This document shows, in pieces, positions 4,447 to 64,000 of a DNA stretch of 64,000 nt. This stretch comes from Mobula hypostoma (lineage: Eukaryota). How positions within the stretch are numbered: the first letter of the stretch is position 1; every line of letters begins with the position of its first letter. Location: assembly GCF_963921235.1 (NCBI RefSeq), contig NC_086097.1:13826001-13890000 (forward strand). The letters run 5' to 3'. Position numbers and translations under genes: made by a program. Under the pieces are notes generated by a model. The model did no database searches. It was not told the DNA's origin and saw nothing but the letters and a program-made list of their open reading frames with translations.

Positions 4447-4726
4447 GGGGTGGCATGGTAGTGTGGTAGTTAGCCCAAAGCTTTGCAGTACAGGCGAACC
4501 GGATTCAATTCCAGCTGCTGCCAGTAAGGAAATTGTACGTTCTCCACGTGACTGCGTGGGTTTCCTCCGGGTGCTCCAGTTTCCTCCCACAGTGCAAAGA
4601 TGTACCAGTTGGTAGGTTAATTGGTCATTGTAAATTGTCGCGTTATTAGGCTATGGTTAATTCGAGGGGGATTGCTGGGGAGCGTTGCTCGAAGTACTGG
4701 AAAGGCTTATTCCATGCTGTATCACA
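4447..4726 (+). mobile_element. tRNA-derived V-SINE (HE1-like)
   Basis: tRNA-like head (tggcatggtagtgtgg...ggattcaattcc) and V-domain gtgggtttcctccgggtgctccagtttcctcccacag. Similar copies at about 10020-10310(-), 21737-22015, 24752-24962, 39330-39475, 54295-54565, 55350-55600(-) and 60133-60435(-). Confidence 0.75.
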
Positions 4727-5375
4727 AATGACCTGACTTGGTCCAACCAAGCAGAGTTCACTGTCAAGGAGGCCCACCAGCGACTTTACTTCCTGAGAAA
4801 GCTAAAGGAATTTGGCCTGTCCCCTAAAACCCTCACTAATTTTTATAGACGCACCGTAGAAAACATTCTTCTAGGGTGCATCACAACCTGGTATGGAAGT
4901 TACCCTGTCCAAGACTGGAAGAAGCTGCAGAAGATCGTGAACACAGCCCAGCACATCACACAAACCAATCTTCCATCCTTTACACCGCATGCTGTCGGAG
5001 CAGTGCTGCCAGGATAATCAAGGACACAATCCACCCAGCCAACACATTTTTCATCCCTCTTCCCTCCAGGAGAAGACTCAGGAGCTTGAAGACTCGTACG
5101 GCCAGATATGGGAACAGCTTCTTTCCAACTGTGATAAGACTGCTGAGTGGATCCTAACCTGGATCTGGGCCGTACCCTCCAAATATCCGGACTTGCCTCT
5201 CGGTTTTTTTTGCACTACCTTACTTTCCCTTTCCTATTTTCTATTTATGATTTATAATTTAAATTTTTAATATTTACTATCGACTTATACTCCAGGGAGC
5301 GCGAAGCGCAGAATCAAATATCGCTGTGATGATTGTACGCTCTAGTATCAATTGTTTGGCGACAATAAAGAAAAG
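4727..5375 (+). mobile_element. Rex1/Babar-type LINE 3' fragment
   Basis: Peptides QRLYFLRKLKEFGLSPKTLTNFYR...WYG and RTARYGNSFFPTVIRLL are typical C-terminal motifs of this clade; 3'UTR ends near aataaa. Confidence 0.75.
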
Positions 5376-11140: not shown

Positions 11141-11324
11141 CATGCCTCGACAATGAGTGGTGGGGGCAAGTAGCACAGATACGAATAAGGAGAATATAGA
11201 TAAATGAGAGGGAGAAAGAAAAATGATGAACAAGAAACTGTAGATGCTGGAACCTGCAGCAACAATCAGCTGGTGGAACTCAGTGGGTCGAGCAGCATCT
11301 CAGGAGGAAAGGAATTGTATTGCT

Positions 11325-15372: not shown

Positions 15373-17362
15373 TCAGGTATCTTCAGGTGGCCTGCAGGTA
15401 TCGGACTTCTGGACCGGTTTCACTCACCTCAGTGCTGAACTGATTTAATGGCTGTGGACCCACTTTCAGGAACTCTGCGATTCATGTACTGTGTATTATT
15501 TACGTTCCTTGTGTCGATTCTATTATTTTCTTTGTTTTGTGACTGCATACAGGAAGATGAATCTCAAGCTTAGGTATGATTTACATACTTCGATAATAAA
15601 TTTATTTTGAACTTTGAATGTTTGAACAAGTCCTTGGATGTGTGTTGTATAAAAAAACTGTATAAGCACACGTATACACACCTACACACATATACTGATA
15701 GACAAAAATACACAGATGAAATTACCAATGAAAATGGACTGATACACCCTAGGACACACAAAGGAAGAGACATGGGACTAATGAGCAAACCAAACTTTAC
15801 AAGCACACAAACACTCACACGCACCCCAGTCTACCAAAATACAAGAACAGACATAAAAACACGGAAAGAAACAGAAAAAATACAAAGGCTCAAACCAAGA
15901 AATCACCTGTATAAAAAATTATAAATCACACCGATGCACGACAACAGCCACAAGTACACATGCATTTCAGATATGGGACCACTGATTGATTTATCGATCA
16001 GTGAGGAATGAACAAGTAGCCTTAATGTGAAGATGAAATCATAGAAATTAATCATGATCATCTAATGAAAGTGGCAAACAAAAATTGTTGGAACAAAGCT
16101 TCTTGCAATAACTCACCTCATGTCATTGAGAATCAAAGAAAGTCAAATGTTTTATCTGTTAACAAAAGGGTTAGGATCATGTGGGCACTTTAGTCTCATA
16201 CAGAATGGATCAGAGTCAGGAAATAGCAACAGTGGAGTTCCAAGGAGATTTAGGATTTTATCACTAAAATATCTCGAGTGCACAAAATAATAATCAAATA
16301 GGCTAACAGAAACCTGGTATTTTTGCCTGTAAGGCAGGAAAGCAAAGATTAGGAGATAAGCTCCAACTACATAAAGCCCCTGATTGGACCATACGCTGTG
16401 CTGTTTTTGAGCACCTTTCCTTGGGAAATGCACTGTAGACAAGGATAATAATAACCAGACTCCAAATATTAAATTACCAACAGTGGTTACCAAGATTGTA
16501 TTCTCTGGAATTTGGCAGATGAAGAGGAAGCTTGAATCTGAATGAAGTGATAGAATGGATGGAAAACTATTTTTTCTATCCATTGTTGGGGAACTTTAGA
16601 CAAGTGGACGAAGACTGAAGGTAGTGCCGGAATACAATTTGGGTATATATGTACCCACAGGGGTTCAGAGAAATTTGCAGCTCTTTTCTGTAGTAGACTG
16701 GCCATTCAATATTATGGTATCAGACTTTATGGGAGGCCAGGAAAGAAATCACGGAGGCTACTGTAGAGATAATTGCTTCACCATTAGTCGCTGGCAAAGT
16801 TCCAGAGAACTTCAGAGTGGCTAATTTTGCTCCATTGTTCAAACTTTCTTCAGGGTCTAGGCTCGAAACGTCGACTGCTTGTTCATTTCCATGGATGCTG
16901 CCTAACCTGCTGAGTTCCTCTAGCATTTTGTGTATGTTGCTTTGGATTTCCAGCGTATGCAGAATTTCTTGTGCGCAATGTATCATTTGCATCAAATCGA
17001 ATCAGCGAGGATTGTGCCAGGCGGCCTGAGAGTACCGCCAAGTTTCCAGCGCCAATGTCGCATCCCCACAGCTCACTAACCCTAACTGTACATCTTTGGT
17101 CTATGGGAGGTGACTGAGGAAAACTATGCCGCGGCTGGGAGAATGTACAAACTCCTTAAAGATAGCGGCAGGAATTCAGGCCCAGAGTGTTGTAAAGAGT
17201 TGCGCTAACCACTCTATTACCATGCTGCCTCCGATTATTGCATTCCTGACACCACATTAAAGCACTTACTCAACTTGGAAGAGTTATTGTGCAGCATTTA
17301 GTGTCATAACTCTCCCATGGATGCTCCCAAGCTCGGTTGTGAAAAGAAAGGGTTGGGCATGG

Positions 17363-22384: not shown

Positions 22385-22765
22385 GCAGCACACACAGAAT
22401 ACTGGAGGAACTCAGCAGGTCAGCAGCATCTATAGAGATGAATAGACAGTCGACATTTCAGGCCAGGACCCTTCTACAGGACTGAGAAGGAAGGAGGAAG
22501 ACACCAGAGTAAAAAGGTGGGGGGGGGGGAGGGGGAGGAGGCTCACTGGAAGGTGACAGGTGATGTCAGGTGGGCGGCAAAGGTCAAGGGCTAGAGAAGA
22601 AGGAATCTGATAGGAGAGGAGAGTGGACCATAGAGGAAGGGGAAGGAGGAGGGGACCCAGAGAGAAGTCATAGGCAGGTGACAAAAGGTAAAAGTTAAAA
22701 GATCAGAGTGGGGAATAAAGAAAGATGGGGGGAATTTTTTTTACCAGGAGAAATTGATATTCATC
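22385..22765 (-). mobile_element. Older Penelope-like element 3' end
   Basis: Minus strand encodes MNINFSW* (compare MNIDFSNFR* of the young family), then a pyrimidine-rich UTR and decayed hammerhead cagtc-ctgtaga-agggtcctggcct-gaaa-tgtc-gactg. Confidence 0.7.
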
Positions 22766-23389
22766 TACAAATCCATGAACTATTCCTTGTTTACAATATA
22801 TATTAACTTGTTGTAACTTATTTTATGTTTTGTACTGTACTGCTGCCACAAAACAACAAACTTCATGACATATGTCAAGAATAATAAACCTGATGCTGAT
22901 TCTGATCCAGAAATTCAATTCATTCATGACTGTAACCTGAACCCAAGGTTACTTCAGGGCTCTTCAAACTAATGATATCTCTCACTTTTTACCTTCCATT
23001 TGCCTGCTGATTTTTATTTAAATTTCTTTCTGATTCCAACTTTTCCTTGTCCTTGATGCATGGTAACGTTCAGAGATTAGTAATTGTGAGATCATTAGTG
23101 TAGGAAATAATCTGCAGGCATTTACCTGAACGTTCAAAGTTCTGTATGACTTAGAGCTAAAACAACCATAGGAACTCGACTAACACCCCCTTACATGTCT
23201 GGACAGAATACAAGCAGTAACTTGTTATCTGATAGATCATACACCTTCATCTCCAGCCTCATTTTATAGACTGCACCCTTTCATGCCTCTATTTCATGAC
23301 CAAGCCTCCTCAGAATGTTCCTTTCTTAGTTCTTCCTAAGGTCCGATCTTGCTTTCCTCCACATTTTTCCTCCTCCCTAAAGAATCACT

Positions 23390-24619
23390 TTTGATGACCA
23401 GAGCTAAACGTGAGATACAAGCTGAAATAGGTAAAGAACAATGTGGTTTTGTGAAAGACAAAGGTTCAAAAAATGTGATATTGATGTTAAGGATACTATC
23501 AGAACAAGCTATTCAAGTGCAAAAAGATTTGTTTGTTTGTTTTATCGACTACACAAAAGCATTTGATAAAGTGAAGCACAATAAGTTATTTGAAATATTA
23601 CAGGAAACTCTAGATCTAGATTCAAAAGACCTCTGCCTAATCAGAAATCTGTACTGGGAACAAACCTCCGCTGTAAGAATGGATGGAGAAGTGAGTCAGT
23701 TTATGAAAATCAAGAGAGGCGTTAGACAAGAGTGTGTTTTCTCCCCTGATTTGTTTAATGTGTACAGTGAAACAATATTACAAAAAAGAGACATCTTGGG
23801 AATCAAAGTTGGCGATGAAAACATCAATAATTTCAGATATGCAGATGACACTGTGTTAATTGCAAGTACGGAGGAAGAACTATAAAACTTAATTGATACA
23901 GTCATTGAAGAAAGTACAAAAATGGGTCTATCTATCAATTGCAAAAAGACAAAATGTATGGTGATATCCAAAAAGAAGGAGAATCCTATCTGCGGGCTGA
24001 AAATAAACGGGGAAGACATAAAACAAATACAGAACTTTTGCTACTTAGGAAGCTGGGTGACATCAGATGGCAGGTGCGACATGGACATCAAAAGAAGAAT
24101 AGGGATGGCAAAAGACACCTTTATGAGAATGAAGAGTATACTGACCAACACTAAACGAGGTATGACAACCCGCCTCAGAGTGCTGAAATGTTACGTTTAT
24201 CCAGTTATGTTATATGGATCAGAATGTTGGACAATATCTTGTAACATGAGGAAACAAGTGGAAGCAGCAGAGATGTGGCGCTTGAGGACGATGCAAAGAA
24301 TATCATGGACGAAATGAATATCTAACGAGGATGTCATGAACAGAGCAAACACAAAGAGAGAATTAATGTATGAGATCATGAAAAGGCAACGTAACTTCAT
24401 TGGACATGTGATTAAGAAAGAGGAGTTAGAATGTATGGTAATTATGGGAAAGATTGAAGGGAAGAAAGCAAAAGGAAGACAAAGACAAATGATGATGAAG
24501 ACAGCAGCCAGAGAACTGGAAATAAATACAAATGAATTGATCCACTTGACCCAAAACAGGAATGTGTGGGCCATGGTAGTCAAAGCTCAGTCTGGGCATG
24601 GCACCTGATGATGATGATG
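23390..24619 (+). mobile_element. 5'-truncated RTE LINE (RT pseudogene)
   Basis: Three same-frame ORF pieces (23349-24608) split by two premature stops; EQCGF, FIDYTKAFD, GVRQ and YADD motifs; (TGA)n tail; 11-bp direct repeat aaagaatcact at 23379-23389 and 24620-24630. Confidence 0.9.
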
Positions 24620-26246: not shown

Positions 26247-26536
26247 GTGTAAATGTGTGCTCGATGGTTGGCACAATCTCGGTGGGCCAAAAGTCCTGTT
26301 TATGTGCCATGTGGCTGTGTAGTCTCTAATACCATGGGTTGTCTCGGAATGTTCAAAAAGCTCCCATTTCACAAAACTTGGTATGGATGGAAAACGTTCC
26401 CTCCCAACAAGCAACTATCACCCCACCATCTCTTCTAACAGTGTGGGGAGGAGGGGATCAAGGTCTAGTCATAGTTACATACATCAAAGTTGCTGGTGAA
26501 CGCAGCAGGCCAAACAGCATCTATAGGAAGAGGTGC

Positions 26537-26572
26537 AGTCGATGTTTCAGGCTGAGACCCTTCGTCAGGACT
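26537..26572 (-). ncRNA. Minimal type I hammerhead ribozyme motif (CAUC variant)
   Basis: Minus strand: AGUC-CUGACGA-AGG(gucucag)CCU-GAAA-CAUC-GACU. Confidence 0.6.
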
Positions 26573-26656
26573 AACTGAAGGAAGAGTGAGTAAGGGATTT
26601 TGGATCTCCCCCTCCCCCTCCAACTTTCAAATCCCTTACTCACTCTTCCTTCAGTT

Positions 26657-26692
26657 AGTCCTGACGAAGGGTCTCGGCCTGAAACGTCGACT
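26657..26692 (+). ncRNA. Minimal type I hammerhead ribozyme motif
   Basis: AGUC-CUGACGA-AGG(gucucgg)CCU-GAAA-CGUC-GACU: stem I AGUC/GACU, core CUGANGA and GAAA, GUC cleavage triplet, palindromic vestigial stem III. Confidence 0.8.
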
Positions 26693-27540
26693 GCACCTCT
26701 TCCTATAGATGCCGTTTGGCCTGCTGCGTTCACCAGCAACTTTGATGTATGTTGCTTGAATTTCCAGCGTCTTCAGAATTCCTGTTGTTTTCTAGTCATA
26801 GTTACGTTGACTCTTTCAAAGGCATCACTTGTGTGACAGAGAGAGATGGCAGAGTAGGAGAAGCATAGTTACTGCAACTCTGAGAAAGTGACGGTAGCTG
26901 TCATGCATTTTGCTGCAAAGATTGACGCCCTTAAAGAACAAAGCAGTGTCAAAGACCAAGAGAAGGAAATGCTCAAACCAACACTTGGCAGTCCTGTAGC
27001 TGTGGACAAGGCGAGGTGTCCCCGTGTTGGAGAAAAACTTAACAAGGTGGACTTGTGGAAATCACACTTTTTTTTCTGCAGCCACTATTAGAGATGCCTC
27101 CAGAGGAGGTGTGAAGGATTATATTATGAAATATGGGGTAGTTTCTTCTCACTGAACTGAGGCATTTTTATTCTTCTTTTGTGTGATTTTTGGCACAATA
27201 TTCACATAATGCTTAAACTCAAGTGGAAACTTGCCAACTCAGCAGTGATCTTACTGACACCCCTGTTAATAAGACATGGACAAGACCACAAAATTACTTT
27301 AACCTAACAGCTCGACTGACGCAGCACCTTTAAATCCATCAAAGTACAAATTATCACGACTGAGGTAACATGCTATTGGAGAAAAAAAAATGGATTCCCT
27401 GGAAATGAAAAATACCATTACCTCACATGGCTCCAGCAAGCTAATATTGCTGCTATTCATCTTCAGGGTATTTTCACTGCTGAGGCTGCACCTCTTGCCC
27501 ATTATAAGATGTCGTAAGAAAGTAGTGATGGGCTATTTAT

Positions 27541-28581
27541 GTACTGTATAGCTAGGGTGCCTAAGACTTTTGCACAGTACCGTAATTGTTAACATGGAGT
27601 GGAGAGCAAGTTTGTTAATCTGGTGGGAGCAAAGGATTCTGGGAATGGTGAAGAGGTGTGGAACGGGTGGCAAAGAAGAAGTGACGGGGCAGGGGGTGGT
27701 GCTGGTACAAACATACCCAGATCTGAGATACTAGGCAGGGTCATCTGATTCTAAACAATTGCTTTATTGATGATTACAGAATGTCTCTCTTGTGCTTCCT
27801 GCTCCCTTCCCTCTCCCTTTCCCTTTTCCCGACCTTGTACAAGGCATTGGTGAGGCCAAATTTGGAGTATTGTGTACAGTTTTGGTCACTGAATTATAGG
27901 AAAGATGTCAACAAAATAGAGAGAGTACAGAGAAGATTTACTAGAATGTTACCTGGGTTTCATCACCTAAATTACAGAGAAAGGTTGAACAAGTTGGGTC
28001 TTCATTCTTTGGAGCGTAGAAGGTTGAGGGGGGACTTGATAGAGGTATTTAAAATTATGAGGGGGATAGATAGACTTGACATGGATAGGTGCTTTCCATT
28101 GACAGTGGGAGAGATTCAAACAAGAGGACATGAGTTGAGAGTTAAAGGGCAAAAGTTTAGGGGGTAACATGAGAGGGAACTTCTTCACTCAGAGAGTGGT
28201 AGCTGTGTGGAACAAGCTTCCAGCAGAAGTGGTTGAGGCAGGTTCGATGTTGTCGTTTTAAGTTAAGTTGGACAGCTATACGGACAGGAAAGGAATGGAG
28301 GGTTATGGGCTGAGTGCAGGTCGGTGGGACTAGGTGAGAGTAAGCATTTGGTATGGTCTAGAAGGGCCGAGATGGCCTGTTTCCGTGCTGTAATTGTTAT
28401 TTGGTTATATGGTAGATGCACATCAGAATCAAGTTGATCATCACACACAGATGGCATGAAATTTGTCATATTTTTGCGGCAGTGGTACAGTACAATGCAT
28501 AAAATTATTACAGTGCTGTGCAAAAGTCTTAGGCACCCTAGCTACATATGTATATGTGCCTAAGACTTCTGCACACTACTG
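27541..28581 (-). mobile_element. Composite Tc1-like element, copy 2, interrupted by CR1
   Basis: Well-preserved palindromic terminus at 28511-28581 flanked by TA; body at 27583-27830; partial second terminus at 27541-27582. Confidence 0.75.
27831..28412 (+). mobile_element. Young CR1 LINE 3' fragment
   Basis: LYKALVRPNLEYCVQFWS...ERVQRRFTRML...RRLRGDLIEVFKIMRG, followed by the tail. Confidence 0.9.
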
Positions 28582-34320: not shown

Positions 34321-35019
34321 GTGAAGTGAAAAAGCAATTATTCAGGGTTTTAAGTGGCACCAGTACTACACTTGTCATGCCAACTGGGGCCAAGTCTGTC
34401 AGGAATTGCATTCTAGGCGGGCGATGGTTGAAAACTTGTTCTGACATTTGTTGCCAATCAAATGGAAACGAGATGCACAGTTATAGCAGAAGTAGGGGGT
34501 GAATCGATCTGAGCATACCTGTAAACCTCTGTTTGTAAGACTAAGATCTTTAGTAATCTTGCTGCCCTCCAACTCTTAAATCCTGTACTTATCCAGACCC
34601 ACTACCACAGACACATATGCCTACTACAAACTTGTCCTATCAGAATCTTTCTTCTCCAGCCCTTTATCTTTCCCACCTATCTTTCTCCTCCCCCCACACA
34701 TTTTTTATTATGGCTTCTTCCCCCCCCTTTCTTTTCAGTCCTAAAGAAGGGCCTTGGCCCAGAACTTTGACTGTTTATTCATTTCTGAAGATGCTGCCTA
34801 AACTGCTGGGTCCCTCAAACATTTTGTGTGCGTCGGTTTGGATTTCCAGCATGTACAGACTTACTTGCATTTTAGTTCTCAGCTTGGATGCTACAACTCA
34901 CAGTCTCTACATAAGTCAAATCCATCAAAGGCAAGTTCATCCCAGAGCTGGTAGGAATGGGGGAACTGGTATCTCTGCTGTATTTTCCAGCTATTTACGA
35001 TTGTCACCAATAAAGCCTT

Positions 35020-35183
35020 ACACGAGGAATTCTACAGATGCTGGAAATTCAAGCAACACACATCAAAGTTGCTGGTGAACACAGCAGGTCAGGCAGTATC
35101 TCTAGGAAGAGGTACAGTAGACGTTTCAGGGCGAGACCCTTCTGCCTGATCTGTTGCGTTCACCAGCAACTTTGATGTGTGTT
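35020..35183. mobile_element. Inverted Penelope-like mini-insertion
   Basis: Tailed arm 35020-35142 (minus) and short opposite arm 35143-35183; TSD accaataaagcctt (35006-35019) / accgataaagcctt (35184-35197). Confidence 0.85.
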
Positions 35184-36736
35184 ACCGATAAAGCCTTTTC
35201 TAGTTTCCCTTTTGACCATCTCTGCCGTATTAGGAAGTCCTCTGATTTGCATTAGGGAGAATACGTCAAGAGAAGTGTCTTCTTTCGTAAATTTTTCAGG
35301 TATTTCCTTTATCACACATTTATAATAATTATAGCACCTGTTTTGCTAGTCAGTGAACTAACTCCATTATGTATCAAACCATAACTGAAATATCAGCGCC
35401 TCCATTTGCAGCGGAAATATGATACAGCTTTTTATTGCCATCTCCCTGTTCCACATCTGAAGGTAAAGTGATTCATCAAAAGACACCATCCAACCAAATG
35501 TGCACTAGGTTTCTGCCATTCTCATCTCCAGTTCCACCTCTGTCCCCTCACTGTGATTTCTCCACCATGGCCTCTCCAACATCAGAGTCACAAATTCTTG
35601 GAAAGGTCCCAAACTCATTAACTGAACTGACTCCACAACCTATGGACTCACTTTCAAAGACTCTATAACTCATGTTCTCGGAATTATTTACTTATATACG
35701 ATGATGGTGTTGATAATGATGATTCATATAGTTTTTTTGTATTTGAACAGTTTGTTTTCTTTTGCACATTGGTTGTTTATCATTCTTTGGGTATAGTTTT
35801 CATTGATTCTATCCTATTTCTTTGTTTTACTGTGAATGCCCACAAGTAAATGATTTTCAGAGTAGTTTATGGTGAATTATATGTACTTTTGATAATAAAT
35901 TTACTTTGAACTTGGAACTTTGAACCAATGTAAAGCTGTTGGCTTAACTCAACCCAGGTGAGTGAAACATTGGCATCAACTGTGGAGTAGAAAGTGGCGG
36001 CAACTACATTCATTCTTGGCCAGTGCAAATTTTTCCTCTGTGACCGGAATAGTTCTTAGATTCCATCCCTTTGTGTTTCATGTTGGCAAATGTTAGGCAT
36101 TTTTGACAGTGTCCACCCTACTTCAACTCAATGCAAGTAGCTAGCAAAGGCTTGGGGCACCTCTATGCCTTATTCTCCCGAATTAAACAGGAATCTCAAG
36201 GAAATCGTAGACCGCCAAACTACCAAAGCAGTTTGTGGTATAGCACAAAAATCTTTGGGAAAAATATATAGTGTTACACAGTATAATAAGTTTTATAAAT
36301 CGCAAAAAACTTTTACAATCCATTAGTAAAGCTGTATTTAAGAAAAGTCAGAGCGGTTTTGTGCACACTACTATTCCACATAAGATATTTGTCACACATT
36401 GTTAGTTGAGGGACAAACATTGGTCAGACCAATAGCTGAAAGGACCTGAGCACTCGGACTAGTAACATCTTATCTAACGTATTCCATCCTCTGCACTCTG
36501 TTGGTACCTCGAGGGATGAACACACTGCTTCAGACCTTATATCGGCAATCTGTGCTAGTACAATAATTCTTGTCATTCAATAACCAGCTCACTTAAATAT
36601 GTGTTGACCTTGTAGACTATGTAATAGCATTAACTTGGGTGGAAATTCAGTGGAGTTGAAATCAGACACTGTTGGAAATTAAACAGACAGGGATGGCAAT
36701 GAGTGATTGGCCTCATTTCAGTGACCCTACTCCAAC

Positions 36737-40341: not shown

Positions 40342-40392
40342 AGGGGGTCCGGCATTTAAGAAAAAGTGTGAGTAATACAGTATTTAACAGTT

Positions 40393-40417
40393 TAATTCTG
40401 CAGAATTCCTGTTGTTT
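40393..40417 (+). mobile_element. 25-bp tail-only Penelope-like insertion
   Basis: taattctgcagaattcctgttgttt contains the last 21 nt of the element tail, between acagtatttaacagtt repeats at 40377-40392 and 40418-40433. Confidence 0.75.
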
Positions 40418-40720
40418 ACAGTATTTAACAGTTGTGTTTGCTACCAGCAAGTCGCCGCTGTGTTTCACCAGCATATTTAGATTATGAGGACACTCAGTCC
40501 TCGTTTATTGTCATTTAGAAATGCAAGTATTAAAAATGATACAATGTTCCTCCAGAAAGATATCACAGAAACACAGGACAAACCAAGACTAAAACTGACA
40601 AAACCACATAATTATAACATGTAAACAACAGGAATTCTGCAGATGCTGGAAATTCAAGCAACATACATCAAAGTTGCTGGTGAACGCAGCAGGCCAAGCA
40701 GCATCTATAGGAAGAGACGC

Positions 40721-40755
40721 AGTCGACGTTTCAGGCCGAGACCCTTCGTCAGGAC
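40721..40755 (-). ncRNA. Minimal type I hammerhead ribozyme motif
   Basis: Minus strand: GUC-CUGACGA-AGG(gucucgg)CCU-GAAA-CGUC-GACU. Confidence 0.7.
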
Positions 40756-42173
40756 ACGCTCTTAAACTTTTCGATGATTTTAAGTTCCCTGGCCCCCACC
40801 GCTTTATTTTCACCATGGATGTCCAGTCCTTATATACTTCCATCCCCCATCAGGAAGGTCTCAAAGCTCTACGCTTCTTTTTGGATTCCAGACCTAATCA
40901 GTTCCCCTCTACCACCACTCTGCTCCGTCTAGCGGAATTAGTCCTTACTCTGAATAATTTCTCCTTTTGCTCCTCCCATTTCCTCCAAACTAAAGGTGTA
41001 GCTATGGTCACCCGTATGGGTCCTAGCTATGCCTGCCTTTTTGTTGGGTTTGTAGAACAATCTATGTTCCGTGCCTATTCTGGTATCTGTCCCCCACTTT
41101 TCCTTCGCTACATCGACGACTGCATTGGCGCTGCTTCCTGCACGCATGCAGAACTCGTTGACTTTATTAACTTTGCCTCCAACTTTCACCCTGCCCTCAA
41201 GTTTACCTGGTCCATTTCCGACACCTCCCTCCCCTTTCTAGATCTTTCTGTCTCTGTCTCTGGAGACAGCTTATCCACTGATGTCTACTATAAGCCTACT
41301 GACTCTCACAGCTATCTGGACTATTCCTCTTCTCACCCTGTCTCTTGCAAAAACTCCATCCCCTTCTCGCAATTCCTCCGTCTCCGCCGCATCTGCTCTC
41401 AGGATGAGGCTTTTCATTCTAGGACGAGGGAGATGTCTTCATTTTTTAAAGAAAGGGGCTTCCCTTCCTCCACTATCAACTCTGCTCTTAAACGCATCTC
41501 CCCCATTTCACGTACATCTGCTCTCACTCCATCCTCCCACCACCCCACTAGGAATAGGGTTCCCCTGGTCCTCAGCTACCACCCCACCAGCCTCCGGGTC
41601 CAACATATTATTCTCCGTAACTTCCGCCACCTCCAACGGGATCCCACCACTAAGCACATCTTTCCCGCCCCCCCCCCTGCATTCTGCAGGGATCGCTCCC
41701 TACACAACTCCCTTGTCCATTTTTCCCCCCCATCCCTCCCCACTGATCTCCCTCCTGGCACTTATCCGTGTAAGCGGAACAAGTGCTACACATGCCCTTA
41801 CACTTCCTCCCTTACCACCATTCAGGGCCCCAAACAGTCCTTCCAGGTGAGGCATCACTTCACCTGTGAGTCGACTGGCGTGATATACTGTGTCCGGTGC
41901 TCCCGATGTGGCCTTTTATATATTAGTGAGACTCGACGCAGACTGGGAGACCGCTTTGCTGAACATCTACGCTCTGTCCGCCAGAGAAAGCAGGATCTCC
42001 CAGTGGCCACACATTTTAATTCCACATCCCATTCCCATTCTGACATGTCTATCCACGGCCTCCTCTACTGTAAAGATGAAGCCACACTCAGGTTGGAGGA
42101 ACAACACCTTATATTCCGTCTGGGTAGCCTCCAACCTGATGGCATGAACATCGACTTCTCTATCTTCCGCGAA
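40755..42173 (+). pseudogene. Penelope-like reverse transcriptase plus GIY-YIG endonuclease (N-terminally truncated)
   Basis: FTMDVQSLYTSIP, QTKGVAM, RYIDD, Cys-rich linker CKRNKCYTC and VIYCVRCSRCGLLYISET...RFAEH. Frame is open, but with apparent G>V (AMVTR) and YIG>YIS changes; the native stop (TAA in the 53.59 kb copy) reads GAA at 42171-42173. Confidence 0.9.
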
Positions 42174-42468
42174 GGCCCCACCTCCCCCTCGTACCCCATC
42201 TGTTACTCATTTTTATGAACACATTCTTTCTCTCACTCTCCTTTTTCTCCCTCTGTCCCTCTGAATATACTCTTGCCCATCCTCTGGGTCACCCCCTCCC
42301 CTTGTCTTTCTTCCCGGACCTCCTGTCCCATGATCCTCTCGTATCCCCTTTTGTCTATCACCTGTCCAGCTCTTGGCTCCATCCCTCCCCCTCCTGTCTT
42401 CTCCTATCATTTTGCATCTCCCCCTCCCCCTCCAGCTTTCAAATCCCTTACTCACTCTTCCTTCAGTT

Positions 42469-42504
42469 AGTCCTGACGAGGGGTCTCGGCCTGAAACGTC
42501 GACT
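42469..42504 (+). ncRNA. Minimal type I hammerhead ribozyme motif
   Basis: AGUC-CUGACGA-GGG(gucucgg)CCU-GAAA-CGUC-GACU. Confidence 0.75.
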
Positions 42505-43261
42505 GCGCCTCTTCCTATAGATGCTGCTTGGCCTGCTGCGTTCACCAGCAACTTTGATGTATGTTGCTTTAATTATAACATGTAGTTACAACAGTGCAAA
42601 GCAATACCGTAATTTGAGAAAGAGCAGACCATGGGCACGGTAAAAAAAAAAGTCTCAAAGTCCCAACAGCCCCATCATCTCACGCAGACGGTAGAAGAGA
42701 GAAACTCTCCCTGCCATGAACCTCCAGCACCGCAAACTTGCGGATGCAGCACCATTGGAAGCACCCGACCGCAGCGGACTCTGAGTCCGTCCGAAAACTT
42801 TGAGCTTCCGACCAGTCCTTTGACATCGAGCACCGAGCACCATCTTCTGCCGAGCGCCTCGACCCCACCCCCGCCACCAAGCAACAAGCAAAGCCGATTT
42901 AATTTAAACCATTGTAAATTAAGCTACAGTTAAATAGGTGGTTTGCTGGGCGGTGCAGCTCATTGGCCCAGAAGAGCTTGTTATGCGCTGTATCTCGAAG
43001 TAAAAACATACATTCATACATACCGCAGGGAGCATTGTTCTACCTGGTTTAGAGTCAAGTAGGTTAAAGGGAGAGGTAGCATTATACGGAGAGGCAGGGT
43101 AGAGTCATAAAGTCATGGTGTCTTCATGGTATGGAACAGGCCATTTGTTCCAAATGGTCTGGGTTGCCCAAGATGCCCAGATAAGCTTGTCCCATTTACC
43201 TGCATTTGACTGATACCATTCTAAACCTTCCTCATCCATGTACCTGCACAAATGTCTTTGA

Positions 43262-47420: not shown

Positions 47421-49403
47421 TAATTAAGAAGCATACAATGAAATACCTCATTTTCATTAACAACCAACACACCCAAGGATGTTCTGGGGGCAGCCTGCAA
47501 TTGTCGCCATACCTTCTACTGCTAACATAGCATGTTTACAATGTTCAACACAACACATTACACGGCACAGCAAAAACAATAGAACAAAGCAACAGCAAAG
47601 CAAGTCCCTTTCCCAAACTCTCACCACCCTCCTTCCCCCCACGCCCCGCAAATACAAGGGCCCCAGCCTCCAGTCTTGACTCCAGAATCTCAGTCTTGCT
47701 GACATCATGCATCTAACTCCAGTCTCGGACTCAGATTACTGCTTGGGGAAAGTAACTGTTTGTGAGTCTGGTGGTCTTGACAAGGAGGCTGCCCAGCCTC
47801 CTCGCTGCTGGGACTGGGACAAATAGTTTGTGAGCAGAGTGCGTGGGATCCTTCATGATGTTACTGGTCCTTTTCCAGCACCTTTCTGTATATATGAAAG
47901 GAATAAAGAGTCGGTTTCCGGCCAATCCCTTTCATCAGGACTGGAAAGGAAAGGGGGGATACAGCATGTGCCTTTTCTCAATTGAATCAACATGTACACC
48001 AATTATTATCATGAATATGATCTATTTTCTTTCTGCAAATATTGAAAGGTAATGCCATCATGGGGAAATATCAACATAACACAGTAAATAATATGTATTT
48101 AATATACATATACATACTGTAATTGATTTAGTTATTTATTTTCCTCTAAATTATCATGTATTGCATTGTACTGCTGCCTCTAAGTTAGCAAACTTCGTGA
48201 CGTATGTCGGTGGTTTTGAACCTGATTCTGATTCTCGTGCGAACGTGAGGGTGAAGTGTGGGTATGATGATGTACACAATAACACACTGTGGCTGCTGAT
48301 GTCATCTCACTGCGTGGCAGGACGAGGACACAGTGAAAGTGATGACGTGCCTCGCAGGAAGTGGTGGGAGCTTGACTGTAACTTGGTTACACTTCAGCAC
48401 AGACATGAGGTGGAACATTTCCAGGGGCCCATTACAGCTACAGAAAAGCAAAGGATTGATATGTCGTTGAACATGCAACACACAGCTTTGCATTGGTTCA
48501 TTCTCACTGCGAAGACCAGCCAGAAAAGGGACCCACAATAAATGACACCTGAAGAAATTAATGAAATGCATTGAGAGTACCTGACCAGCTGCATCACTCC
48601 CTGGTACAAGAATTGCAAGGCATCTGGCCACAAGACCCTACAAAGTATTGCAGAGACTGCTGAGAGGATCATTGGGGTCCCTCTTCCACCCATCTGAGAT
48701 ACATACCTGGGCCCAAGGCATTGTCAATGATTGCTCCCATCCCAACAATCTCAATAGAAACTGGGGCTTAGGCCCACTTTGAGAGCTCCAAGCAAGTGAG
48801 CAAAGATGGTACCAGCAGCACCTGAGGCAGGAGACTAAGCTTCACGAAGGGCAGCGGAGCAGAGACCAGCAAAGACGTCTGTGAACAGCCCTGAGTGTAA
48901 TGGGCAGTGCACAGATGCTGGAACCTGAAGCAGCAGACGATCTGCTGGTGAAACTCTGTGTGTTGAGCAGCATCTGGTTGGGGGGGAGGGAAGCAGTTGC
49001 CGATACTTTGGGTTGAAATCGCATCAGGAAACCTTTATGTCACCAATTACTTCCTCTCTACACATGCACCTTGATCAGCTGAGTTCCTTCAGCAGATTGT
49101 AATGTATAGTAATTGCGACTTGGAGAAATAGTTGGAGCTCAAATTATATATTACCCACCACTCCTCGCCTCCACCACCACTATGTTACTATTTCCTGTCA
49201 CTCACTTTATGTACTGACACTCCAGTGCCTAGCATCACTTTGTGGACATACAATCAATCCATCTGTAAAAGCTATCATGTATTTATATTTATTGTGTTTT
49301 TGTTATTATTGTGTTCTTTATCAGTATTGGATCTGGAGTAACAACTATTTCATTATCCTTTACTAAAAATGACATAAATAATCTTGAACAGAACTGAATT
49401 CAA

Positions 49404-49914: not shown

Positions 49915-51240
49915 ATCTTTCTGACGGTGTACCTGGTAGGGCTCTGAAAATCTGCACCAACCAACTGGCGGGAGCGATCAACGACATCTTCAGTCTCTCA
50001 GTGCTGCATGCAGAGGTTCCCGCCTGCTTCAAAAGGGTGACAGTCATACCAGCGCCAAGAAGAGCAGGGTGAGCTGCCTCAATGACTATCGTCCAGTGGC
50101 ATTCACATTTACTGCGATGAAATGCATTGAGAGCTTGATCACGGCTAGAATCAATTCCTGACTAAGCAGGGACCATGACCCGATGTAATTTGCCTATCAT
50201 CACGAGAGGTCTACAGCGGTTGCAATCTCACTGGCTCTCCAGTCGGCCTTGGATCTACATCAGCCTGATTGCAGCTCAGCATTCAACTCAATCATACCCT
50301 TAGTTCTAACCAACAAGCCCCAAAACCTGTGTCTCTGTACCTCCCTTGACTTCCTCACAAAGAGACCACAGTCTGTTCTGATTGGAAAAAATATCTCCTC
50401 CTCGCTGACAATCAACACTGATACATCCCAAGGATGTATGCTTAGCCCACTGCTCTACTCTCTCTACACCTATGAATGTCTAGCTAGGCACAGCTCAAAT
50501 TCCATCTATTTGCCGACAACATGGCTATTACAGGCAGAATCTCAGATGGAGATAAGGAGGTGTACAAGAGCAAGATGTATCAGCCAGAGGAATGGTAGCA
50601 CAACAACAGGCCTTGCACTCAATATCAGTAAGACCATGGAATGCATTGCAAACTTCAAGAAGGGAAGGTCATGGGAATGCACACTAGTCTTCATTGAGGG
50701 ATCAGCAGTGGAAGTAGCGAACAGTTTCAAATTCCTGGGTGTCAACATCTCTGAGGATCAACATAATGATTCAATTACAAAGAAGGCATGATGGTGGCTA
50801 TATTTCATTAGGAGTCTGAGGAGATTTAGTATGGCTCCAAAGACACTCACAAATTTCTACAGATGCGCCGTGGAGAGCATTCCAACTGGTTGCATCACCA
50901 CGAGGTATGGAGGGGCCACTGCACAGGACTGGAGAATGTTGCAGAAAGTTGTAAACACAGCCAGCTCCATCATGGCCACTAGCCTCGCCAGTATCGAGGA
51001 CATCTTCAAAAGGTGATGCCTCAAAAAGGTGAGATCCAAAAAGGACACGCAGCATCCAGTACATATCCAGTTCTCATTGCTACCAACAAGGAGGAGGTAC
51101 AGGAGCCTGAAAGACACACAGTCAAAGTTTCAGGAATATCTTCTTCCCCTTCGCCATCAGATTTCTGAATGGACAATGAACCCGTGAACACTACTTCACT
51201 ATTTCCTTTTTCTCTTTACTTATTTAATTTAATGTTTTTT
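49915..51240 (+). mobile_element. Degenerate Rex1/Babar-type LINE (RT region to 3'UTR)
   Basis: LNDYRPVA, DCSSAFNSI, QGCMLSPLLYSLYT, SFKFLGVNIS and KTLTNFYRCAVES fragments with frameshifts. Confidence 0.8.
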
Positions 51241-51249
51241 TAATATATT

Positions 51250-52348
51250 CAGTACTGAGCAAAAAAAATATATATATATATAGCTAGGATGCATAAGTCC
51301 TTTGCACAGTACTGTATTTATCAACTCTGGTGGGAATAAAGGATGGTGGGAATGGCAAGGGTAGAGTGTCGTGGGAGGGGTATGGAAGAGGTGGCAGAGA
51401 AGGAGTGCCAGAGCCCAGAGGTTGATGCAGCTGCCCTGAGACACCAGGCAAGGTCGGTTGATTCCAAACAATTGGTTTATTGATCATTTCAGAATGCCTC
51501 TCTGATGCTTCCTGCTCCCTCCCCTCTCCCTTTCTCTTTTCCCAACAATGATTCCTCTCTCCCTGCCCTGTTCCCACTCTCAGTCCACAATAGAGACCCA
51601 TATAGTCATAGTCATAGTCATACTTTATTGATCCTGGCGGAAATTGGTTTTCGTTACAGTTGCACCATAAATAATAAATAGTAATATAACCATAAATAGT
51701 TAAATAGTAATATGTAAATTATGCCAGGAAATAAGTCCAGGACCAGCCTATTGGCTCAGGGTGTCTGACCCTCCAGGGGAGGAGTTGTAAAATTTGATAG
51801 CCACAGGCAGGAATGACTTCCTATGACGCTCTGTGCTGCATCTCGGTGGAATGAGTCTCTGGCTGAATGTACTCCTGTGCCCACCCAGTACATTATGTAG
51901 TGGATGGGAGACATTGACCAAGATGGCATGCAACTTGGACAGCATCCTCTTTTCAGACACCACCGTGAGAGAGTCCAGTTCCATCCCCACAACATCACTG
52001 GCCTTACGAATGAGTTTGTTGATTCTGTTGGTGTCTGCTACCCTCAGCCTGCTGCCCCAGCACACAACAGCAAACATGATAGCACTGGCCACCACCAACT
52101 CGTAGAACATCCTCAGCATCGTCCGGCAGATGTTAAAGGACCTCAGTCTCCTCAGGAAATAGAGACGGCTCTGACCCTTCTTGTAGACAGCCTCAGTGTT
52201 CTTTGACCAGTCCAAAATCAGAATCAGGGTTACCATATACCACTCACATGTCATGAAATTCGTTTTTGGGGGGGAGCAACAGAACAGTGTAATACATAAA
52301 ATTACTATAATACTGTGCAAATGTCTTAGGGACATATATATAGCTAGG
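51250..52348 (-). mobile_element. Composite Tc1-like element, copy 5, interrupted by a Rex1/Babar fragment
   Basis: Terminus 51250-51314, body 51320-51600, LINE tail 52215-52305, partial terminus 52308-52348. Confidence 0.7.
51602..52214 (-). mobile_element. Young Rex1/Babar-type LINE 3' fragment
   Basis: LDWSKNTEAVYKKGQSRLYFLRRLRSFN...SFLPVAIKFYN in an open frame; (GACTAT)n tail. Confidence 0.85.
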
Positions 52349-53270
52349 AACCGTACTTGATATTGTAATTTATAGTTTTATTATTACGTATTGCACTGCA
52401 GTGATGTCGCAAAACAAATTTCACGAGATACACCAGTGATATTAAACCTGACCTTGATAATACAGACAACATATAACACTGGTGGCTTCACATCCTTATG
52501 ACAACTGTGTGCCCTGATGTACATTTGTGACCTTTAACTGCAGACACACAGCTGGGTGCTGTTGCTATGTTATCTCCCTTTAAGATCTTTTACCTTTCAC
52601 TTGGCACATATCTGATCATAACATCCTTTTGGTCACAGGTGTTCTGGTTTTAAATGCGAATATGAAAAAAAATTATAATCTTGTGGATAAGCATCGGAGG
52701 AAGAAAAGCTTACCGCCTCTCCTCCACCCCCAGTCCCCTTCACCCACGTGTGTTTAAGAATTGAGCACCAGGGGTAATGTCAATACCCGTGCATAAACTA
52801 GACCAGGGATTTCAGGATACCTCAGTTTGGTCAGATTCTGTAATAAAGAGAATAGGATTGATCAAAGTTCAAAGTAAATTTATTATCAAAGTATTCACCA
52901 TACACAACCCCGAGATTCATTTTCATTTTGTATACACTTTACATAGAGACATTTCTGGTGAATAACTTAGACAGCGATGTTAAGTAATGACTCCCTGAAG
53001 GTGACCCCCACCTACCTACCAATTGATACGGTTGTCATGGGTGATACACAGGAACTCTGTGGTGGTTAGTGAAGGCAAACTGCTACAAAATCAGTTTCGA
53101 GGGTTAACGAATCTAAGGAGATGAGTGTAATGTGGTATGTATAAGCAGTACAAACTACATTTATCCTGATGTTAACAACAGGAATTCTGCAGATGCTGGA
53201 AATTCAAGCAACACACATAAAAGTTGCTGGTGAACGCAGCAGGCCAGGCAGCATCTCTAGGAAGAGGTAC

Positions 53271-53306
53271 AGTCGATGTTTCAGGCCGAGACCCTTCGTC
53301 AGGACT
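53271..53306 (-). ncRNA. Minimal type I hammerhead ribozyme motif (CAUC variant)
   Basis: Minus strand: AGUC-CUGACGA-AGG(gucucgg)CCU-GAAA-CAUC-GACU. Confidence 0.6.
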
Positions 53307-54002
53307 AACTGAAGGGATTTGAAAGTGGGAGGGGGAGGGGGAGATCCAAAATGATAGGAGAAGGCAGGAGGGGGAGGGATGGAGCCAAGAGCTGGACAGG
53401 TGATAGGCAAAAGGGATAAGAGAGGATCATGGGACAGAAAGTCCAGGAAGAAAGACGGGGTGGGGGGGACCCAGAGGATGGGCAAGGGGTATATTCAGAG
53501 GGACAGAGCGAGAAAAAGGAGAGTGAGAGAAAGAATGTGTGTATAAAAATAAGTAACAGATGGGGTACGAGGAGGAGGTGGGGCATTAGCGGAAGTTAGA
53601 GAAGTCGATGTTCATGCCATCAGGTTGGAGGCTACCCAGACGGAATATAAGGTATTGTTCCTCCAACCTGAGTGTGGCTTCATCTTTACTGTAGAGGAGG
53701 CCGTGGATAGACATGTCAGAATGGGAATGGGATGTGGAATTAAAATGTGTGGCCACTGGGAGATCCTGCTTCCTCTGGTGGACAGAGCGTAGGTGTCCCT
53801 CTGAATATACCCCTTGCCCATCCTCTGAGTCCCCCCCCCCTTGTCTTCCCGGACCTCCTGTCCCATGATCCTTTCATATCTCTTTTGCCTATCACCTGTC
53901 CAGCTCTTGGCTCCATCCCTCCCCCTCCTGTCTTCTCCTATCATTTTGGATCTCCCCCTCCCCCTCCAACTTTCAAATCCCTTACTCACTCTTCCTTCAG
54001 TT

Positions 54003-54038
54003 AGTCCTGACGAAGGGTCTCGGCCTGAAACGTCGACT
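54003..54038 (+). ncRNA. Minimal type I hammerhead ribozyme motif
   Basis: AGUC-CUGACGA-AGG(gucucgg)CCU-GAAA-CGUC-GACU. Confidence 0.8.
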
Positions 54039-54565
54039 GCACCTCTTCCTAGAGATGCTGCCTGGCCTGCTGCGTTCACCAGCAACTTTTATGTGTGTTG
54101 TTTATCCTGATGTTACCCTCACTTCTGATTACTCTGCATCAAAGCCTACTTGGGAATAGTGGAATGCATTCTCTTCTGAAAAATCTGATTCAAATCCAGA
54201 GTAATAAATTACTTTTATATAGAGTGGCTAACATAGTAAACAAGAACCTGTACATTGTCAGCACAGTTTTTCATGGGATGTCACTGGTGCTCAATACAGT
54301 GGTGTAGCAGTTGGCACAACACTATTTCAGCTTGGGGCGTCGGAGTTTAGAGTTCAATCCTGCAAGGAATTTATACGTCCACCCCATGGAATGTGTGGGT
54401 TTCCTCTGGATGTTCTGGTTTCTTCCCAGAGTCCAAGTACATACCAGTTAGTAGGTTAAATTGTCATGGAAATTGTCCTGTGATTAGGCTAGAGTTAAAT
54501 CAGGGATTGCTGGGTGAAGTGGCTCGGACGGCCTGAAGGTCCTATTCAGCACTGTATCACTAAAT

Positions 54566-63786: not shown

Positions 63787-63879
63787 TTTACTGTAATGTA
63801 CAGGTTTTTTATTATTATGTATTGCAATATACTGCCACTGCATAACAAATTACACAACATTTACTGGTGATATTAAAAC

Positions 63880-64000
63880 AACACACACAAATCGCAGGAG
63901 GAACTCAACAGGCCAGGCAGCATCAATGGAAAAGAGCACAGCCAAAGTTTAGGCCGAGTCCCATCATCAGGATTGAAGAAAAAATAATGAGGGCTCCTCA
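63880..64000 (-). mobile_element. Old Penelope-like terminal repeat fragment
   Basis: ggaggaactcaacaggccaggcagcatc plus minus-strand cctgatga hammerhead core remnant. Confidence 0.6.

Follow-up and report, generated by a model that had tools for sequence, protein, structure and literature searches.

Head-to-head Penelope-like insertions with two recurrent 3' ends in a ray-like genome, and a plausible case for priming from both target strands

The window, that is, the whole 64,000-nucleotide stretch of DNA analysed here, contains four dead, 5'-truncated insertions of one family of Neptune-type Penelope-like elements (PLEs). Each consists of two arms arranged head to head, with the element 3' ends facing outward, inside a single target site duplication (TSD) of 14-15 bp. 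The first-pass annotation of this DNA had described the four two-armed insertions in these terms, and both the TSD repeats and the arm alignments bear it out; a fifth young insertion, consisting of tail only (40393-40416), had been overlooked. The features are as follows.

40609..40623, unstranded: left TSD (15 bp) of the focal insertion; exact repeat, with the empty site in other host-repeat copies
40624..40755, minus strand: focal inverted arm of 132 nt with the full tail end, +101/102 from the hammerhead cut
40624..40655, minus strand: focal 32-nt tail, not present in the long arm
40721..40755, minus strand: minimal hammerhead motif of the focal left arm, with helix I trimmed to 3 bp by the central junction
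40755..42569, plus strand: focal 5'-truncated arm of 1815 nt with the short-site end (+69), 1 nt being common to the left arm
40755..42218, plus strand: 5'-truncated open frame with reverse transcriptase (RT) motifs, thumb, linker and C-terminal GIY-YIG nuclease with CCHH residues
42468..42505, plus strand: minimal hammerhead motif of the focal long arm, predicted cut after 42500, mapped on the near-identical copy 26656-26693
42570..42584, unstranded: right TSD (15 bp) of the focal insertion
26464..26805, unstranded: 26-kb sister insertion, TSDs 26464-26478/26791-26805
26479-26600 (minus) and 26597-26790 (plus): short and tail arms of the 26-kb sister, central overlap 4 nt
35006..35197, unstranded: 35-kb sister insertion, more decayed, TSDs 35006-35019/35184-35197
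35020-35142 (minus) and 35142-35183 (plus): tail and short arms of the 35-kb sister, overlap 1 nt
53160..54115, unstranded: 53-kb sister insertion, TSDs 53160-53174/54101-54115
53175-53796 (minus) and 53794-54100 (plus): tail and short arms of the 53-kb sister, overlap 3 nt
40376..40433, plus strand: tail-only mini insertion, a 17-bp TSD (40376-40392/40417-40433) around 24 nt (40393-40416)
2038-2160, 2735-2777, 11229-11308, 16853-16969, 22385-22662, 34684-34865, 48912-48975 and 63869-63991: 8 older relatives of the element 3' end, 64-77% identical

The two TSD copies are identical at 26, 40.6 and 53 kb (15/15 positions each) and agree at 13/14 positions at 35 kb; TSDs are A/T at 56 of 76 positions, compared with 57% A/T across the window. 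The short-ended and tail arms measure, respectively, 122 and 194 nt at 26 kb, 42 and 123 nt at 35 kb, 1815 and 132 nt at 40.6 kb, and 307 and 622 nt at 53 kb. The earlier statement that either arm can be the longer one is true insofar as the short-ended arm is longer at 40.6 kb, one copy of the four. When end positions are numbered from the predicted hammerhead cut site, all four tail arms stop between +100 and +102, and the short arms at +62/64 (26 kb), +65 (35 kb), +69 (40.6 kb) and +66 (53 kb), with a tail of 32-40 nt on one end only of each insertion. A short end placed at a fixed site 33-40 nt before the tail end had been proposed; the spacing is essentially retained, whereas the fixed site gives way to an 8-nt window rather than a single position. 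One tail per pair was found in 4/4 insertions, an outcome expected with P = 0.0625 if the ends were independent. Both outer junctions read target and then element 3' end inward, which is target-primed geometry, and the target-template overlap at these junctions is 0-2 nt. Within the 1815-nt arm there is a single occurrence of the tail's final 8 nt, with 1 mismatch, and it lies exactly at the short end (42562-42569), which suggests two like start signals and not a trimmed end.

The 3' region is predicted to fold no more stably than its shuffled versions (z -0.29, -0.21 and -1.41), although a hairpin is predicted whose 3' strand contains the short ends. We also observed that near-identical GU-rich 8-mers close the short end at 42562-42569 and the tail end at 26783-26790.

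The focal copy retains a single ORF in which the RT motifs DVQSLY and RYIDD, the thumb and, C-terminally, a GIY-YIG nuclease follow one another in order. A Pfam search of this ORF gave no match at E 0.001; the RVT_1 (E 0.055, aa 16-126) and GIY-YIG (E 0.18, aa 375-449) hits both lie below the cut-off, and a search of solved structures with the element protein gave no match at E up to 1. The ORF has 807 homologues, many with these domains, the closest named ones (93%) being from Mobula hypostoma. The CCHH residues C382, C385, H404 and H420 are invariant in 11/11 aligned sequences, the two cysteines lying between GIY and YIG, and the focal copy carries S in place of the YIG glycine. Between the RT and the nuclease, at aa 339-347, lies the CX4CxxC linker CKRNKCYTC; in the part of Craig et al. 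(2021, PMC8557442) covered here, a CX2-5CxxC linker is given for Neptune and Nematis and as missing from Penelope/Poseidon. By the motif definitions of these authors (PMC8557442), the element is an endonuclease-bearing PLE of the Neptune/Nematis type, and Neptune and Poseidon are the only clades in the vertebrate sample of a preprint, in its accessible part. The N-terminal region, to which dimer formation is ascribed, the DKG motif and the direct pLTR tandem are truncated away in the window copies; DKG is present in 4 longer homologues (46-54% identity).

All four two-armed copies combine an inverted 5'-truncated copy, a one-sided 30-40 bp tail and a TSD. The same anatomy appears in the consulted parts of two papers, one describing an inverted pLTR, a TSD that encloses the complete insert and a tail carried by one of the inverted repeats (Arkhipova et al. 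2013, PMC3846280), the other drawing the same PLE insertion unit, whose tail is frequently restricted to a single end (Craig et al. 2021, PMC8557442, Fig. 2). The form of the insertions is thus already known for PLEs, and the host family is what is new. Compared with Pen2a_Av of Adineta vaga, as far as described in the same part of PMC3846280, the TSDs are longer (14-17 bp here vs 8-10 bp there), the element is of the Neptune type in a ray-like genome, and the central junctions are without a palindrome.

The target of the focal copy is a multicopy host repeat (40460-40623 and 42570-42700), of which no second copy was found in the 64-kb window. Many other copies of this repeat hold the focal target once, so that the focal TSD must have arisen on insertion. 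In addition, run contigs join 40608 to 42570 in 3/3 runs covering the stretch, omitting 1961 nt, which equals the insert plus one TSD copy, and loose contig ends at 40620 and 42570 continue straight into the opposite flank. Run X9 contains 48 contigs whose flanks are mixed and which exit the element at the tail end, 40623, and the tail end therefore recurs; no short-end case was present among the listed matches (18 of 5394 loose ends and 15 of 1841 joints).

The arms of each insertion are more similar to one another than to those of other insertions. In 4/4 insertions the short arm has its nearest match in the tail arm of the same insertion, the true pairing being the best of 24 (smallest possible P = 1/24), and 7 informative columns, counted manually, are concordant within pairs and differ between insertions. 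Because private variants are common to both arms, the two arms of an insertion come from one source. In favour of two independent insertions at one site, one after the other, a PLE protein is able to cleave the repeat region of its own element in vitro (Frangieh et al. 2024, PMC11167929, in the part covered); nevertheless, one TSD surrounds both arms, no second TSD lies at the centre and private variants are common to the arms in 4/4 cases, which makes such a history highly improbable. Insertions from different subfamilies are likewise unlikely, given that the true arm pairing is the best one and that variants are common within pairs.

The 53-kb arms (53175-53796 vs 53794-54100) differ at 16/294 sites and by two multi-base deletions. 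The differences are denser upstream (13/186) than downstream (2/107; P = 0.059), and each arm has a deletion of its own (14 nt and about 6 nt). The upstream excess is a hint of non-identical templates that we do not count as support. The arms at 26479-26600 and 53175-53300 carry the same G-to-A change in the self-complementary hammerhead core, at a CpG, probably as a result of independent decay.

The hammerhead was mapped by hand and comprises a helix I of 5 bp, a helix II of 4 bp and a self-complementary helix III core with no helix III loop; an Rfam search did not match it at the gathering score. Metazoan PLE minimal hammerheads (Cervera and De la Pena 2014, PMC4209133, in the part covered) share the conserved core, a helix I of 4-5 bp, an unpaired base 5' of helix II, the lack of a helix III loop and a palindromic core suited to dimers, and are reported there as pairs on opposite strands, 100-700 bp apart; helix II is shorter here than in the Schistosoma families (4 bp vs 7-8 bp). 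Judged by the 5' core, 6/8 arms contain the minimal motif, which is one reason to ask whether hammerhead cleavage, with or without circularisation, creates a template that fixes both ends; another is that retrozyme hammerhead RNAs are reported, in the part of the preprint covered, to give circles (bioRxiv 10.64898/2026.07.22.740005). Yet 7/8 arms cross the cut site, and no outer end and no central junction of the four insertions lies at it, the outer ends being 62-102 nt downstream. Moreover, catalytic ribozyme mutants of PAc, a Poseidon element of Anolis carolinensis, left insertion in vitro unchanged, and no RNA reads ended at the cut in the experiments covered (PMC11167929). The insertion ends are not defined by the hammerhead, and we consider a ribozyme-made template that fixes them very unlikely, although a re-ligated circle may be involved. 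The earlier proposal of a tandem-repeat RNA produced by hammerhead cleavage is not supported, given the same observations and given that cleavage would cut up a tandem RNA instead of creating it.

At the central junctions the two arms share 4, 1, 1 and 3 nt (26, 35, 40.6 and 53 kb, respectively). A summed overlap of at least 9 nt has a chance probability of P = 0.008-0.026, so that the microhomology noticed previously is upheld as modestly above chance. These junctions bear on the proposal, made for the same anatomy in rotifer PLEs (Arkhipova et al. 2013, PMC3846280, in the part covered), that self-priming on an antisense template at palindromes yields a head-to-head repeat before integration. 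The four junctions are not palindromes but 1-4 nt overlaps of distant element positions, and sense RNA is a working template in vitro in the experiments covered (PMC11167929), leaving this route a poor candidate for the present family.

The explanation that we favour, with a probability of roughly 0.55, is that a staggered cut supplied two 3' ends, that both of them served as primers for RT at the element's pair of internal start sites, and that the cDNAs joined centrally. Each of these ends, separated by about 15 nt in a cut that is presumably of the 3'-overhang kind, would start RT on a separate template copy at one or other of the internal sites. Either a pair of RNAs from a single source locus or two units within one tandem or circular RNA could serve as templates, and the two cDNAs would then join in the middle, by microhomology or end joining. 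The main rival is a fold-back, in which a single nick primes at the tail, and the resulting cDNA then pairs through its 3' end with a short inverted match and is extended along itself. The bound complex or a nuclease would stop or trim this copy 32-40 nt before the target junction, so that the tail is left on one side. Fold-back accounts for the one tail per pair, the common variants, the central microhomology and the 8-nt spread of the short ends. Furthermore, Craig et al. (2021, PMC8557442), in the part covered, explain the tail by a nuclease that resolves an intermediate. The common variants and the central microhomology are predicted by two-strand priming and by fold-back alike.

What separates the two is the 40.6-kb copy, in which the 132-nt arm alone carries the 32-nt tail and the 1815-nt arm alone carries some 1.7 kb, including the ORF. 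As neither arm contains the other, this copy rules out plain fold-back; its short-ended arm is 14x the length of the tail arm, and a second cDNA is needed. At 26, 35 and 53 kb the short arm is contained in the tail arm, and these three of the four copies fit fold-back equally well. Fold-back is further disfavoured because the RT of a related PLE starts at both ends in vitro (PMC11167929, in the part covered), because the short end coincides with the near-copy of the last 8 nt of the tail, and because the differences between the 53-kb arms would all have to be post-insertion decay. We judge fold-back with nuclease trimming the less likely of the two, and it may operate alongside two-strand priming.

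Priming from both strands draws on published biochemistry, all of it taken from the parts of PMC11167929 covered here (Frangieh et al. 2024). The PAc protein, a predicted dimer, cleaves both strands in vitro and extends them, the ribozyme being dispensable there, and it starts RT at two internal sites, which lie on either side of the tail and agree with genomic ends. The likeness to the present family lies in the two start sites downstream of the hammerhead around the tail and in the AT-rich targets. This in vitro work concerns another clade with AC-rich start sites, whereas the ends here are GU-rich; inverted two-armed insertions and two-site pairing on one target are not discussed in the parts of that paper covered. 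No difference in the start site of PAc was seen between strands, and independent priming would therefore give tail/tail and short/short pairs as well, of which there are 0 among the 4 insertions (P = 0.0625, a weak result). The earlier claim that both nicked strands prime at two sites thus survives in its target-primed geometry, the common source of the arms, the 40.6-kb copy and the behaviour of PAc in vitro (PMC11167929), whereas a fixed assignment of strand to site finds no parallel in PAc and three of the four copies fit fold-back.

The comparison with L1 had also been drawn too sharply, since Meyer et al. (2010, PMC2837659, in the part covered) had already put forward, for L1, a 'dual priming' by two RNAs that results in a second copy of the 3' end, validation not being achieved. 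Twin and dual priming of L1 resemble the present case in that both nicked strands prime, the cDNAs join centrally and one TSD results (PMC2837659 and PMC2246262, as covered, both referring to Ostertag and Kazazian 2001); L1 primes on poly(A) (PMC2837659), whereas two defined internal sites are used here. Twin priming of the L1 type, from two non-overlapping parts of one RNA, one of them poly(A)-primed, was rejected, as the arms overlap in the same sequence and there is no poly(A). Arms that both begin at a start site, with neither copying the other, as dual priming entails, are found at 40.6 kb; the 26-, 35- and 53-kb copies are compatible with either. A literature search, with key subscription papers outside its reach, found no paper uniting these findings into a coupled two-site PLE model. 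Two-strand priming is likely, and it lies a short step from published work, the anatomy being that of Arkhipova et al. (2013) and Craig et al. (2021) and the start sites those of Frangieh et al. (2024). As a mechanism it extends that work plausibly and by little, and four copies do not establish it.

The tail-only copy weighs against two-strand priming, as do older relatives without partners. The mini insertion, 190 bp from the focal copy, consists of 4 extra nt and the last 20 nt of the tail, with no short-site arm; two full arms are therefore not obligatory, and the two-armed form is seen in 4/5 young copies of the window. Its 5' 3 nt lengthen the 8-nt palindrome of the element to 14 nt, resembling a tiny snap-back, a likeness that would suit fold-back. 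A search within 3 kb of the 8 older relatives brought up neither a partner arm nor a TSD that convinced (7 were searchable and 1 lies at the window edge; there was one 20-nt match), a test that is limited by decay and that recovers all 4 young partners.

A broader version of two-strand priming, which we put forward tentatively and with some doubt, is that two-ended priming might be the normal PLE route. An asymmetric dimer would hold two template copies, its subunits starting at the tail motif and at the near-copy 32-40 nt upstream, and the inverted repeat with a one-sided tail would be the footprint of coupled dual priming. If both strands indeed prime at coupled sites, PLE second-strand synthesis would differ from that of LINEs, and coupled dual priming would represent the mechanism proposed but never validated for L1. 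The reading bears on how PLEs finish integration and on their inverted, one-tailed insertions, and this high-copy family would then be a good place to count the use of coupled start sites. What is new is the near-repeat motif found at each end, the one copy that excludes plain fold-back and the one tail-only copy; otherwise little goes beyond the published anatomy.

Scans of metagenome and viral contigs for the end pattern yielded 12 metagenome loci, which we attribute to chance as they match only 22-29 nt around the pattern (9/12 at E 0.01), and 0 matches in the other scans. By eye, some of the older relatives within the window finish near the tail and others near the short site. Finally, the ORFs at 23340-24317, 27727-28167, 4661-5157, 50189-50791 and 51748-52377 are, by eye, what we take to be decayed LINE reverse transcriptase fragments.
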